Source: Haliotis cracherodii
Taxonomy: Eukaryota
Reading direction: 5' to 3'
Assembly: GCF_022045235.1 (NCBI RefSeq)
Contig: NW_027266266.1
Coordinates: 186,001 to 250,000, forward strand
DNA: 64,000 nt
The position numbers and the translations under genes are program-made. The notes under the pieces were generated by a model, which searched no databases, was not told the DNA's origin, and saw only the letters and a list, made by a program, of their open reading frames with translations. Positions 7,625-17,975 of this stretch are shown here, piece after piece. Position 1 is the stretch's first letter. The number at the start of each line of letters is the position of its first letter.

Positions 7625-7710
7625 TTTCACATGGTTTAAAATTAATTGCGAACATAAGATTGGTTCGAAAGACAGACAGTAGTTGTGTGCATCGGTCTGG
7701 AACCAGAACC

Positions 7711-7893
7711 AAGATGGCGGCACTTCCGTTTCCGGTGACGCGCGCATCCAAGATGGCGACACTTTCGTTTCCGGAGGCGCACGCCTCCAAGATGGCGGCA
7801 CTTCCGTTTCCGGTGGCGTGCGCATCCAAGATGGCGTCACTTCCGTGTCCGGTGGCGCACGCCTCCAAGAGGGCGTTGCCACCGTTTCCGGGG
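7711..7893 (+). promoter_or_regulatory. 39-bp tandem subrepeats in the TIR carrying YY1-like (AAGATGGCGG) and ETS-like (CACTTCCG, TTTCCGG) motifs
   Basis: Units start at 7711, 7750, 7789, 7828 and 7867 (partial). The right TIR has one extra unit. Motif function is inferred from consensus matches. Confidence 0.6.
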
Positions 7894-7970
7894 AGGATAG
7901 GGGAAAACCCGGAGAAGCGCACGTAAAAGGTGAACGGGATCGACATTGAAAGAAGCGCGTCAAAAATCGT

Positions 7971-8005
<35 letters not shown>

Positions 8006-8175
8006 CTAAACATAGACGGGGTGCCGGTGGTGAAGGGAGGGAGGGAGGGAGGGTGGTGGTGGTGAAGGGAGGGAGGGGAGGGAGGGAGGGAGGGAGGAAA
8101 GGAGGAGGAGACGGGTTCATGGTTTGGGTTGGAGGGTCGTCAAAGCAAAGGATGAGAGTTGTCTTTTGGGTGAGA

Positions 8176-8199
8176 TGGGTGGCCCTGAAAAGGGTCGTT
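8176..8199 (-). terminator. Histone mRNA 3' stem-loop-like signal, copy 1 (in left TIR)
   Basis: Minus strand reads AAC-GACCCT-TTTC-AGGGCC-ACCCA-TCTCACC-CAAAAGACAAC, with one stem mismatch versus consensus. Confidence 0.7.
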
Positions 8200-8338
8200 G
8201 GAAAACAAACTGGAAACTGGAAACTGGAAACGCCAGGAAACGGTAGGAACACTGGAACACTGGAACACTGGAAAAACTGGAAAAACTGGAAACGATGGGA
8301 CACTGGTACAAACAGTGGAGCAGCATGCCCCTCATGTG

Positions 8339-8614
8339 TTAGTCACTTTGTTCAGATGATCTATCATCTTCATCCTCTACTTCCATCTCATCCTCGGACT
8401 GAAGGTGTCGTCGGCGCTTTGAAGCGTGCTTTCTTGAGAGGCTTCTGATCCGTTTTCTTTTCTCTACACGAGGTGTGATGCCTGGTCTGCACCTCGGTTT
8501 TCCAAAACCACGTTTTCTCGCTTCTTGTTCTCCCACCTTTTCAGACACCCACTCGGAATTTGGGACAACATCTTGGGAGGATGACATGGCATTCATAGAC
8601 CGTCTTTGCTCCAT
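8339..8614 (-). CDS. Hypothetical 91-aa charged protein of the Polinton left arm (basic NLS-like stretch, acidic tail)
   Basis: ATG-initiated ORF with KRKRIRSLSRKHASKRRR and an EDEMEVEDEDD tail, oriented toward the left-TIR stem-loop. It overlaps a fragment of the promoter repeat, so it may not be a real gene. Confidence 0.3.
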   Translation of the reverse strand: MEQRRSMNAMSSSQDVVPNSEWVSEKVGEQEARKRGFGKPRCRPGITPRVEKRKRIRSLSRKHASKRRRHLQSEDEMEVEDEDDRSSEQSD

Positions 8615-9162
8615 GATGACTGTGACTTCACTGAACGAAGGTCTGAGGGTTCGCCTGATTTTATGAAACTCTCCTCCCTACTTCCCTTCAACGGAAGGTC
8701 ATGACCTCCACCTCCTCCTCCTTCATCTCATCACGTGACGTCATCCTGTGTTTGGGTTGACTGACACGCGGCATGATACATGACACACGAGGATGTGGTG
8801 ATGTGACCTGGAATGATTGACACCAGGCAGCTGATCTTTCAAGCATGACCTTTGTCGTTTATCTATTTTTATTTTAATTTTACACTTTGGTGTGCACTGA
8901 CATGACAGACGCACAGACAGACAGACAGATAGCGTAGACGACATCTCAACTCAACCTCTACCCTCGGTTCGGTACTCTATTGGAGTTGAGATCAATCAAG
9001 ACACAAAGAGTCAGTTCAATCAATCACTGTTTAATAATGAAAAAACCCAATCACAACCAGATACATTGGAAATACGAAAAGACAATGGCGGAGGGAGTGC
9101 TTTGCATGTCCCTACAACAACGCGGCAACGTTTTCCTCTTTCCTCTTCAAGCTCTTCTATCT

Positions 9163-15391: not shown

Positions 15392-15763
15392 ATGGATGTT
15401 GAGGATGGGATACCATCGCTCAGTAACACGCCATTGACCTATTTTCTACGGTTTGAAAGAAGGCTCGCTTCGTTTGAGACGTGGCCTACGCAAATGAACC
15501 AGACTGGTGAAGAGATGGCCCATGCGGGCTTTGCCTACACAGGGGGTGCCGATGGCGTGTACTGTTTCCAATGTGGGGTGCGGCTGAGACGATGGGCGCC
15601 CCACGACGATCCTTGGGTGGAACATCACTGGTGGTCCCCACACTGTGACTACCTCAGACTAACAGGTCTTGTGAAACACAAGAAGAAGCTACAACTACGC
15701 TATCTCCGTGAGGAGAATGTGAATCAGAAGAACACGAATGGCGTAGCACGGCTGGATGCCTAG
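15392..15763 (+). CDS. Single-BIR-domain inhibitor-of-apoptosis-like protein (123 aa from first ATG)
   Basis: RLASFETWP..EMAHAGFAYTG..DGVYCFQC-x16-H-x6-C is an exact BIR Cx2Cx16Hx6C signature. No RING. The frame is open upstream to an ATT at 15302. Confidence 0.9.
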   Translation: MDVEDGIPSLSNTPLTYFLRFERRLASFETWPTQMNQTGEEMAHAGFAYTGGADGVYCFQCGVRLRRWAPHDDPWVEHHWWSPHCDYLRLTGLVKHKKKLQLRYLREENVNQKNTNGVARLDA

Positions 15764-16060
15764 GAGGGCGACGTTTCCCGTGTCCTGTGTTCCTGTTCAA
15801 GTTCCCGTTCCAGTTCCGGTTCAAGTTCCCGTTTGTCTACTGCTGTTGTTGTGGATGGTTCAGTCTGTTTCCGCTTCCTGTTTCCTACAAGCTTTTCTTT
15901 TGTTGGACCCCACAAGTGTTGGCACATAGGGCACCCCGATGACATACCCAGATGGTATACCCAGATGACAGCAAGTACCGTTTCGACGATCCTTGTCTTG
16001 TCATAAGCTTGGACATGATGATTCTTCTTGGACAGCAGCAGAAAAGTTTTCTTCTTTCCC

Positions 16061-16105
16061 AAAACGGCCCTTTTCAGGGCCACCCATCTCACCCAAAAGA
16101 CAACT
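16061..16105 (+). terminator. Histone mRNA 3' stem-loop plus downstream element, copy 2 (perfect consensus)
   Basis: AAAAC-GGCCCT-TTTC-AGGGCC-ACCCA-TCTCACC-CAAAAGACAAC, stem at 16066-16081. AATAAA follows at 16192. Confidence 0.85.
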
Positions 16106-16811
16106 TTCATCCCTTGCTTTGCCAAACAACGACAATCCAAAACAAAGAACCCACACCCTCCCCTTAGACCTCTTGGAGGCACACGTGTAAAAATAAAATA
16201 AATAGATATAAATATAAATATATAAATAGAGACACGTGGTACACTACGTGTGCATGGAGACACGAGTCAAACATCACGTGTGCATGAAAACACGTGTCGC
16301 AGTACGCCTGTCGACTTACACGGGTGTCAACACCTCGGTATCATTAAAGAATCATAATGATAATTTGAAGACACACACACACACACACACACACACAGGA
16401 CACGACGTTTGCATCACGTTGGTGTATTGATCTTTCTCTATTCATCTCAATACTACATCCATGGTTGTAGTCACACACACATACATACACGGGGCATCAC
16501 GACATTTTGCCTGACAACATGCGTGAAACACTTCGTGTACCTGGTAACACGTATGACAGTACACCCGTCAACCTACACGAGTGTCAGCACCTCGGCATCA
16601 TTCATAATAATAATAATAATCATTCTATGGATCAACGTAAACGTCTGTTTGAAGACAAACACACACAGAACATTCCGATTGGCATGGGAGTAACACAACG
16701 TACATCACGTAAGCATTCTTACATCACGTTCATGCCTACTTATGACGGTCCACCTTAAGCATTCAGACGACCATCTACCTAAAAATACCAAGGCTACCCA
16801 AGAAAAAAACC

Positions 16812-17133
16812 GGATCGAAATCTGACCAATCCGAAGCCTGGGTTGTCGACCAATCAGAGGCCGCGCTCGGACCAGGCTGGGCTCTCACTGGCCGAACCGG
16901 GGTTGTGCTTTCTCTCCCATGGTAAAATCCATTTCCTATGGAAAAGAAACACAGGGGTCGGTCCGCTTTGGAAAACCGAGGTGCTGGCCAGGCACCGGAA
17001 CGAACCAATCGGGGCTGCGGCCTGGGGAACCAACCAAGAAGCAGGGTGTCAGTACCTCTCCTATAAAACAAGAGTGGATTCGAATGGATCAGTCACTTGT
17101 AAAATTTATTCGAAAAATCAAGAATAACTGAAA
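16812..17133 (+). promoter_or_regulatory. Repeated Polinton promoter cassette, copy C
   Basis: CCAAT boxes, CCTATGGAAAAGAAACAC core, CTATAAAACAAGAGTGGATTCG TATA region and TCAGT. Lies upstream of the Cys-rich ORF. Confidence 0.7.
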
Positions 17134-17447
17134 ACTGGGATCTGGAGCTAGCCTCAGTGGTGCACCCTTTGCCACTGTGCAAAGGGTGTCGCTCGGAGTT
17201 GGAGAAGAAAGAAGCAGTACCGCCATTGCCATTGCCTCCACCATGGCAATGCGGTACATGCCAAGGGGGCCTGCCTGTGTACGCCCTTGGCACAAAGGCA
17301 TGGGATGGAACATTTCAATGTGTGTACTGTAAGACCATCCTCAAGGACACCTACGTGCGGCGGTTAACGCACACCGGTAGGTGTCCTGTGAGGAGACAGA
17401 TGAATGTCCACCCGTGCCTTTGCACCGCTGCGTGCACTTGCATGTAA
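17124..17447 (+). CDS. Polinton Cys-rich (three CxxC plus terminal Cys cluster) zinc-binding-like protein; no upstream ATG
   Basis: Open frame from ATA 17124: CKGC..PPLPLPPPWQCGTC..CVYC..CLCTAACTCM*. It sits between promoter copy C and a histone stem-loop 10 nt after the stop. Confidence 0.6.
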   Translation: MTENWDLELASVVHPLPLCKGCRSELEKKEAVPPLPLPPPWQCGTCQGGLPVYALGTKAWDGTFQCVYCKTILKDTYVRRLTHTGRCPVRRQMNVHPCLCTAACTCM

Positions 17448-17452
17448 GCATC

Positions 17453-17498
17453 AAAACGGCCCCTTTTCAGGGCCACCCATCTCACCCAAAAGACAACT
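17453..17498 (+). terminator. Histone mRNA 3' stem-loop-like signal, copy 3 (in right TIR)
   Basis: AAAAC-GGCCCCT-TTTC-AGGGCC-ACCCA-TCTCACC-CAAAAGACAAC, with one extra C in the 5' stem arm. Confidence 0.75.
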
Positions 17499-17975
17499 CT
17501 CATCCTTTGCTTTGACGACCCTCCAACCCAAACCATGAACCCGTCTCCTCCTTTCCTCCCTCCCTCCCTTCCCTCCCTCCCTTCCCTCCCTCCCTACACC
17601 ACCGGCACCCCGTCTATGTTTAGAACAACAACGACAACAACAAACGATTTTTGACGCGCTTCTTTCAATGTCGATCCCGTTCACCTTTTACGTGCGCTTC
17701 TCCGGGGTTTCCCCTATCCTCCCCGGAAACGGAGGCAACGCCCTCTTGGAGGCGTGCGCTACCGGACACGGAAATGCTGCCATCTTGGATGTGCACGCCA
17801 CCGGAAATGGAAGTGCCGCCATCTTGGAGGCGTGCGCCACCGGAAACGGAAGTGCCGCAATCTTGGATGCGCACGCCACCGGAAACGAAAGTGACGCAAT
17901 CGTGGATGCGCGCGCCACCGGAAACGGAAGTGCCGCCATCTTGGTTCTGGTTCCAGACCGATGCACACACCTACT
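17455..17975 (-). repeat. Right terminal inverted repeat of the Polinton
   Basis: Reverse complement of 7678-8199 with substitutions, one more 39-bp unit and shorter microsatellites. Confidence 0.93.

Follow-up and report, generated by a model that had tools for sequence, protein, structure and literature searches.

A Polinton-type element with histone-type 3'-end signals

The stretch of DNA analysed here (the window) comprises 64,000 nucleotides of Haliotis cracherodii contig NW_027266266.1 (positions 186,001 to 250,000). It contains a whole Polinton-type element, a decayed copy of a young abalone Polinton family (family 1), with genes for a protein-primed DNA polymerase B (pPolB), a BIR protein and a Cys-rich protein (Table 1). 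Three hairpins in this element have the form of the signal that ends the mRNAs of replication-dependent (RD) histone genes, and the related elements described below show that, in two phyla, non-histone genes of Polinton-type elements bear a conserved histone 3'-end signal matching that of the host.

The three motifs named in the original prediction were found at their positions, on their strands and with their defects, namely one perfect hairpin, one with an extra C and one mismatched at stem position 2. In all of them the hairpin is followed by ACCCA, then by 7 nt, and then by the histone downstream element (HDE) CAAAAGA. Consensus features of the signal are also seen in the AAC preceding the hairpin, in U at loop positions 1 and 3, and in a G-C pair at stem position 2. 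This pair, which the left hairpin does not have, is conserved in ~95-100% of histone mRNAs according to the available part of a preprint (bioRxiv 10.64898/2026.10.14.759114). The hairpin pattern was matched three times in the window compared with a mean of 0.02 after shuffling, and none of 100 shuffles reached three matches. When Rfam Histone3 (RF00032) was run, the same three hairpins were the only matches in the 64-kb window, and the gathering score of 34 was exceeded only by positions 16061-16106. The full 6-bp stem is found only in the hairpin at 16066 (-11.4 kcal/mol, compared with -9.8 and -4.3 for the other two). The hairpins at 8181 and 17458, both damaged in this copy, mirror each other where the two terminal inverted repeats (TIRs) end on the inside. 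They are not independent, and the window hairpins represent two independent sites and one mirror copy.

As had been claimed, the element contains no histone open reading frame (ORF), and blastn aligned nothing between the element and the host histone repeats outside a hairpin-HDE module of 22-56 nt. The claim that the hairpins lie behind element ORFs holds closely for the Cys-rich gene, whose stop is 10 nt from its hairpin, but the BIR hairpin is 302 nt away from the BIR stop. The left hairpin had been assigned to genes of the left arm; in the window copy only a deletion remnant is found there, whereas in intact copies a CCHC zinc-knuckle gene precedes this hairpin. Neither pPolB nor the 191-aa ORF (192 aa in the original prediction) is followed by a hairpin.

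Table 1. Features of the Polinton-type element, in window coordinates.
Feature	Position	Strand	Remarks
Target-site duplications ACAGAC, 6 bp	7672..7677 (left), 17976..17981 (right)		from sequence
Whole Polinton-type element	7678-17975		begins AGTAGT, finishes CTACT; flanked by 6-bp duplication ACAGAC
Left TIR	7678..8199		begins AGTAGT; inner end is the hairpin; contains 39-bp repeats
Left-arm hairpin with ACCCA and HDE CAAAAGA	8162..8196 (hairpin 8181-8196)	-	stem pair 2 broken; 26.6 bits
Deletion remnant	8339..8614	-	fuses second BIR gene start, promoter piece and acidic tail of CCHC gene, by comparison with intact copies
AATAAA	8868..8873	-	candidate poly(A) signal for 156/191-aa and 174-aa genes
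191-aa ORF (9898-10473) and broken Cys-rich 174-aa-type ORF	9315..10473	-	hairpin absent behind both
Promoter-like repeat preceding 191-aa ORF	10606..10777	-	CCAAT boxes, TTTCGATCC
pPolB gene (PF03175)	10839..14943	-	split over several frames; no hairpin behind
BIR gene promoter-like repeat	15019..15245	+	CCAAT boxes, GGATCGAAA/GTTTCGATCC, TATAAAA
BIR (inhibitor-of-apoptosis domain) gene	15392..15763	+	Pfam PF00653, E 6.5e-23
Perfect histone-type hairpin GGCCCT-TTTC-AGGGCC	16066-16081	+	ACCCA 16082-16086; HDE CAAAAGA 16094-16100; RF00032 36.8 bits
AATAAA	16192..16197	+	~110 nt past BIR hairpin; possible read-through poly(A) site
Cys-rich gene promoter-like repeat	16804..17075	+	CCAAT boxes, TATAAAA
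Cys-rich reading frame	17103..17447	+	start ATG lacking in window copy; ~110 aa when intact
Cys-rich-gene hairpin with one extra C	17458-17474	+	ACCCA and HDE to 17493; 25.7 bits
Right TIR	17454..17975		terminates CTACT; inner edge is the hairpin

Conservation of the hairpins within the family

The exact hairpin pattern was matched 388 times genome-wide compared with 19 times for a reversed control; 100 of the 388 places were listed and not all of these were classified, and the host core histone and H1 genes do not fit the pattern. Ten whole copies were chosen from this list, and the window copy was treated as the eleventh. Their gene order is TIR and hairpin, Cys-rich gene, hairpin and BIR gene, and, on the opposite strand, pPolB, a 156-aa gene, a 174-aa gene, a second BIR gene, a CCHC gene and finally hairpin and TIR. 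AGTAGT ends and 6-bp duplications were seen in the window copy and in at least four of the other ten. An unbroken pPolB ORF of 1415-1417 aa is kept by two of the ten whole copies and by many more of the pPolB matches, indicating that the family is young. Near-identical polymerases are on record from Haliotis.

In the available DNA of 51 family-1 copies, we detected no gene for an integrase, ATPase, protease or capsid protein outside one nested foreign insert (C1:41919256-41924196, L370-L372). This insert of 4.9 kb has TG..CA ends, inverted repeats of ~900 bp and a 6-bp duplication, and encodes an rve-chromo integrase and an A32-like ATPase without a polymerase. It may represent a complementary half-Polinton or serve as an integrase donor.

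A sample independent of the hairpin was obtained by selecting 40 loci by pPolB (55 of 744 candidates scored) outside the whole-copy set and reading both arms of each. Sites were present in 69 of the 80 arms, and 92 of the 99 sites were perfect. All hairpins were oriented outward and none inward. Three sites were found in 27 copies, two in 8, one in 2 and none in 3. Six of the 11 empty arms correspond to deletions, truncations or a displaced end, the latter with a perfect hairpin, and the other five, from three copies, carry an AT-rich block whose usual place is after the BIR hairpin. In a within-family tree that included one of the three hairpin-less copies, these could not be placed with support.

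The expectation that the stem is conserved relative to its flanks was borne out. A variant common to at least two copies occurred in 0 of 63 columns of the hairpin and ACCCA and in 202 of 393 flanking columns; as columns are not independent (indels, subfamilies, TIR pairs), this contrast is a pattern and not a probability. The HDE reads CAAAAGA or CGAAAGA in family 1. The hairpin lies 10 nt past the stop of the Cys-rich gene in 28 of 33 copies, 88-165 nt past that of the CCHC gene and 22-340 nt past that of the BIR gene; for histone hairpins, the available part of the above preprint gives a median of 30 nt (bioRxiv 10.64898/2026.10.14.759114). The hairpins sit behind intact protein-coding genes (BIR, zf-CCHC and the Cys-rich gene of no known family), and these three genes with unrelated 3' untranslated regions share one terminal module. 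The 174-aa gene has no hairpin, and AATAAA lies ~450 nt after its stop in 28 of the 29 copies where an AATAAA was found.

A cluster of tandem short derivatives was observed at C17:10549769-10677727 (L093, L094), with hairpins ~1.6 kb apart and a mismatched stem at both ends.

Similarity to the histone genes and promoters of the host

The four core histone genes of the host end in GGTCCT-TTTC-AGGACC, ACCAA and CAAAAGAA. The host H1 genes have the element's own 16-mer, followed by ATCCA and CAAAAGAA at the element's spacing, and were alike at 20 of 20 loci. An idea that host histones lack the element stem, which would then be a compensated variant, was abandoned because H1 carries the same 16-mer. 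The H1 array holds ~80 copies, and 24 core hairpins were counted in the assembled arrays. Comparison of three element copies with the H1 and core repeats by blastn gave 82-85% identity to the H1 module over 38-47 nt, without gaps.

The host genome encodes SLBP, and this protein is predicted to bind the element hairpin. In the available part of PMC1635294, human SLBP is displaced by a wild-type competitor that includes the complete element 20-mer GGCCCUUUUCAGGGCCACCC without a single change, and the same hairpin was used for nuclear magnetic resonance of SLBP in that of PMC10127258.

The BIR promoter has 15 words of at least 8 nt in common with the four core-histone promoters, compared with 4.6 in shuffles (reached in 0 of 500). 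These words are mostly CCAAT boxes, together with GTTTCGATCC of H2A/H2B, and words of the BIR promoter are also found in the host H3 promoter. The other two element promoters were borderline in the same comparison, and the longest common word was not significant. TTTCGATCC occurs five times inside the element and not once in the remaining 53.7 kb of the window, and is also present in the host H2A/H2B promoter. The promoter block itself is reused before all three genes for which it is listed in Table 1.

A second hairpin-bearing family in abalone

A search of the genome with a limpet pPolB gave three divergent loci (family 2). The whole element at C4:10273017-10289513 (L361-L363) is 16.5 kb long, has AGTAGT ends and a 6-bp duplication, and encodes pPolB, PC4, A32 ATPase, rve-chromo integrase, adenain and BIR. 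A second, more decayed copy (C4:2140455-2153977, L364-L366) has the same ends and the BIR end, and the third locus is interrupted and without the BIR end. The pPolB of family 2 is 34-53% identical to that of family 1 and is the only part that aligns between the families by blastn. In both copies keeping the BIR end, 36 nt past the BIR stop, we found GGTTCC-TTAT-GGAACC, ACCAA, ATCTCC, CAAAAG(A/G)AAAC and AATAAA, in which both sides of three stem pairs differ from family 1. A 450-aa ORF of family 2 has no Pfam capsid match and resembles ORFs of other integrase-bearing loci. Family 2 is a candidate helper for the integrase-less family 1.

Coral-type elements

A pPolB profile gave 83 distant loci (598,834 nt), three of them viral and the other 80 being the best of 483 confirmed metagenome stretches. 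The hairpin pattern was matched eight times in seven of these loci, compared with 0-1 matches in each of ten shuffles. Of the six loci given to Rfam Histone3, L125, L128 and L142 scored 35.1 bits each, L138 24.9 and L127 22.6, and L165 was missed. L127 is a doubtful carrier (contig end, 22.6 bits, E 0.34), and GGCTCC-TACG-GGAGCC hairpins in L119, L120 and L157 were rejected, as they have no ACC flank or HDE.

The remaining matches represent four distinct coral-type elements (L125/126/128, L142, L165 and L138), which have a GGCTC/GGAGCC-type hairpin with AAAGT(C/T)(A/G)ATG, an HDE that lay outside the search pattern. The hairpin is located within ~40 nt behind a 134-165-aa non-histone ORF in L125/126/128, L142 and L138, and no intact ORF precedes it in L165. 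A relative of the L125 protein was found in the coral Desmophyllum. This 137-aa protein (L125:2119-2529) has 59 relatives, and its Atlas neighbours are unnamed phage or bacterial clusters at 0.89-0.91, with a weak RNase/nuclease-like lead. Tandem double hairpins, one of them partly degenerate, stand behind the same ORF at L138:558-582 and L125:2540-2590.

A scan for the coral-type hairpin gave 11 stretches on three contigs filed under bacterial bins, two of which are animal histone clusters. Their H1 groups with Porites lobata, and their H2A with, among others, Nematostella and Oculina. Bacterial genome bins contain anthozoan-type histone gene clusters as contaminant contigs (L318-L327), and at L323:926-1350, also on a bacterial-bin contig, the coral-type hairpin and HDE stand behind a broken HIRAN-like non-histone ORF. 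The anthozoan histone HDE, AAAG(T)(C/T)AATG-like, matches that of the coral elements, just as abalone elements and abalone histones both have CAAAAGA. That cnidarian histones have hairpin and HDE is stated in the available part of PMC5011920. In 19 such ends, 114 of 114 stem cells pair and four of the six pairs change on both sides, counts that are inflated by related rows. A quick tree of 90 polymerases places the hairpin carriers of abalone and of coral on separate branches (99% support); labels of hairpin absence in this tree are unreliable on short contigs. The likeness of the coral element promoters to histone promoters was not above that of shuffles. In the viral collection, two hairpin patterns and a Patella-type pPolB gave 0 matches, and the profile gave the three loci already mentioned, which have no hairpin.

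Other features of the window

PF03175 was matched in the window copy as three fragments. A putative VSR nuclease insert in pPolB, as in mollusc Polintons (PMC10748475, PMC8502044), was recognised by eye from its motif and is presumably of this type. No Pfam family and, in Atlas searches, no other family was obtained for the Cys-rich protein. The TIRs contain 39-bp tandem units (7709-7870 and 17723-17944), each with the words CAAGATGGCG and CACTTCCG, which we take to be YY1- and ETS-like sites, respectively, and which occur in four and three copies in the left TIR. Outside the element, a 51-nt tandem array lies to its left (6000-6509), and a long G-rich simple repeat at 39310-42448 is open in all six frames.

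A proposed role in the processing of accessory mRNAs

In the available part of PMC1635294, SLBP binds the histone hairpin, U7 pairs with the HDE, and cleavage takes place between them. We consider it probable that the three accessory mRNAs of family 1 are processed by SLBP and U7 of the host and that the element gains from the resulting timing. Transcription by RNA polymerase II would run outward through the three accessory genes (BIR, Cys-rich, zinc-knuckle) from their CCAAT/TATA promoters, SLBP would bind the hairpin, the U7 small nuclear ribonucleoprotein (snRNP) would pair with C(A/G)AAAGA, and CPSF73 would cut after ACCCA. The accessory mRNAs would then come under the histone regime: they would accumulate and, dependent on SLBP, be translated in S phase, oocytes and early embryos, and this timing could supply anti-apoptotic and helper proteins during replication of the element in dividing cells of the germ line. 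The two hairpins at the TIR edges may in addition halt transcription ahead of the TIRs. Ordinary poly(A) signals apparently serve the polymerase gene and the 156/174-aa genes, and an integrase would have to be supplied in trans, since family 1 encodes none. A purpose of the signal in S phase or in the germ line is pure inference on our part. The originally proposed co-option of the histone 3' end for accessory genes is partly supported, with strong comparative backing from the conservation within the family, the compensated hairpin of the second family and the host-matched HDEs of abalone and coral elements, although the polymerase lies outside the signal.

The following results weigh against such processing. 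Three of the 40 pPolB-chosen copies have no hairpin on either arm, and the BIR, Cys-rich and CCHC ORFs are also missing from them. Most copies are young and alike in the tree, the BIR hairpin lies 211-340 nt past the stop in 17 of 32 copies, and pPolB has neither a hairpin nor AATAAA nearby. A C-A mismatch variant of the hairpin is found at eight places, five of them in the C17 cluster, where the two loci examined are short derivatives without a recognisable element gene. The family-2 hairpins score 25.3 and 24.2 bits, below the Rfam cut-off of 34, have A in place of the conserved U at loop position 3 and are followed by AATAAA; in a large A32-bearing Polinton family (150 of 444 candidates scored), no hairpin was present in the four loci examined. 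No hairpin was seen in 76 of the 83 distant pPolB loci, including all nine with integrase or capsid genes; many of the distant loci hold so little DNA beyond pPolB that absence there carries no weight. Patterns built on what we take to be the Sm-site motif of U7 gave 2, 94 and 11 matches compared with 19, 118 and 16 in controls, and the candidates examined (2, 50 and 11) included no convincing U7 or 3' hairpin. A host U7 snRNA was also not found with Rfam RF00066 (best 25.6 bits, E 1). Four sequencing runs that we guessed to be RNA yielded contigs covering the BIR gene, the promoters and the hairpin in pieces; some cross the hairpin, and contigs of this kind cannot show transcript ends. None of the runs recorded as RNA contains the stretch.

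Alternative explanations

The module could be processed by SLBP and U7 and serve solely as a compact terminator that shields the TIRs and the flanking host DNA, with no benefit from timing, the gain being the avoidance of double-stranded TIR RNA or of clashes at a replication origin. We regard this as unlikely, even though TIR homology stops at the hairpin on both arms in seven of the 11 whole copies, all sites face outward, the short gene-less derivatives retain hairpins at both ends, and the family-2 hairpin lies ~130 nt inside its TIR. A terminator at the repeats does not account for the third, internal copy behind BIR or for the coral-type hairpins directly behind internal ORFs; moreover, the stems of the examined short derivatives are mismatched, and the CCAAT and GTTTCGATCC words common to element and host histone promoters speak, modestly, against it.

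It is less probable still that a histone 3' end was caught by accident and is passively carried on mRNAs that are in fact polyadenylated, with uniformity resulting from TIR homogenisation and the youth of the family. The likeness of the module to the H1 3' end, the very young age of most copies, the AATAAA that follows in some cases, the contigs that cross the hairpin and the existence of hairpin-less copies would all fit such an origin. However, only the functional 40-47 nt were retained and no other histone sequence, and the module stands behind three unrelated genes as well as in another family, where both sides of three stem pairs have changed. Furthermore, the coral elements carry the coral-specific HDE and their pPolBs form a separate, well-supported clade.

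There is little to recommend the hairpin as a DNA fold-back or recognition site at the inner TIR edge, acting in excision or protein-primed single-strand replication. Its location at the TIR boundary on both arms and the possibility of a 6-bp stem on either strand would suit this role, whereas it would not require ACCCA and the HDE on one particular strand at histone spacing, agreement of the HDE with the host lineage, the internal copy or the placement after stops, and copies without a hairpin keep intact ends. Least probable of all are transcripts that act as decoys, absorbing SLBP or U7, cutting the host histone supply and loosening chromatin control of the element: the 388 perfect pattern hairpins do exceed in number the hairpins present in assembled histone arrays (24 core, ~80 H1), but they sit behind intact protein-coding genes, and the arrays may be collapsed in the assembly.

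Processing of accessory mRNAs by SLBP and U7 remains our preferred reading. Whether Polinton lineages of distant phyla (abalone, stony corals) independently joined this pathway, each tuned to the U7 signal of its host, is in our judgement evenly balanced. To our knowledge, RD histone mRNAs are taught to be the sole clients of the U7/SLBP pathway. If the proposed processing is true, the element genes would be the first viral or mobile, and the first non-histone, clients of the pathway, and anti-apoptotic and helper genes would be tied to S phase and the germ line. A 45-nt RNA module borrowing the S-phase and oocyte expression programme would be a new strategy of host takeover. The signal predicts non-polyadenylated transcripts, which are missed by poly(A) RNA sequencing, and through it the question of when and in which cells Polintons are active becomes testable.

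The available part of PMC4604434 describes RD-histone mRNAs as the only known non-polyadenylated cellular mRNAs and reports that, in HeLa cells, SLBP had no genuine target other than histone mRNAs. In that of the preprint cited above, 'transpos' and 'non-histone' are absent and viruses are examined for proteins only (bioRxiv 10.64898/2026.10.14.759114), and histone-type 3' ends are not mentioned in the available parts of PMC8502044, PMC11131425 and PMC10748475 on Polintons. A literature search, whose coverage did not extend to Repbase reports and subscription journals, found no report of histone 3'-end signals on Polintons.

Comparison with known systems

Polintons are characterised by long TIRs beginning with AG(T) and by 6-bp target duplications. 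Family 1 resembles Polintons/Mavericks (adintoviruses, polintoviruses; pPolB2-like) in its pPolB, its ~500-bp AGTAGT TIRs, its 6-bp duplications and its gene of the inhibitor-of-apoptosis (IAP) type, but departs from the Polinton/adintovirus norm in that integrase, packaging ATPase, adenain protease and capsid genes are absent. IAP homologs are mentioned in the available part of PMC8502044.

The 3' ends of the accessory genes resemble those of RD histone genes (RF00032; SLBP, U7 snRNP, CPSF73) in the 6-bp stem, a loop of 4 nt, the AAC, the ACCCA and the purine-rich host HDE at H1 spacing. In contrast to the histone genes, they belong to BIR, Cys-rich and zinc-knuckle genes, and the distance from stop to hairpin is longer for two of the three. 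Histone genes of the H2A.X type have a hairpin plus a downstream poly(A) signal. The BIR cassette, the BIR gene of family 2 and the host H1 genes, with AATAAA 50-110 nt past the hairpin, are similar to these dual-ended genes, from which the elements differ in that their cargo is non-histone.

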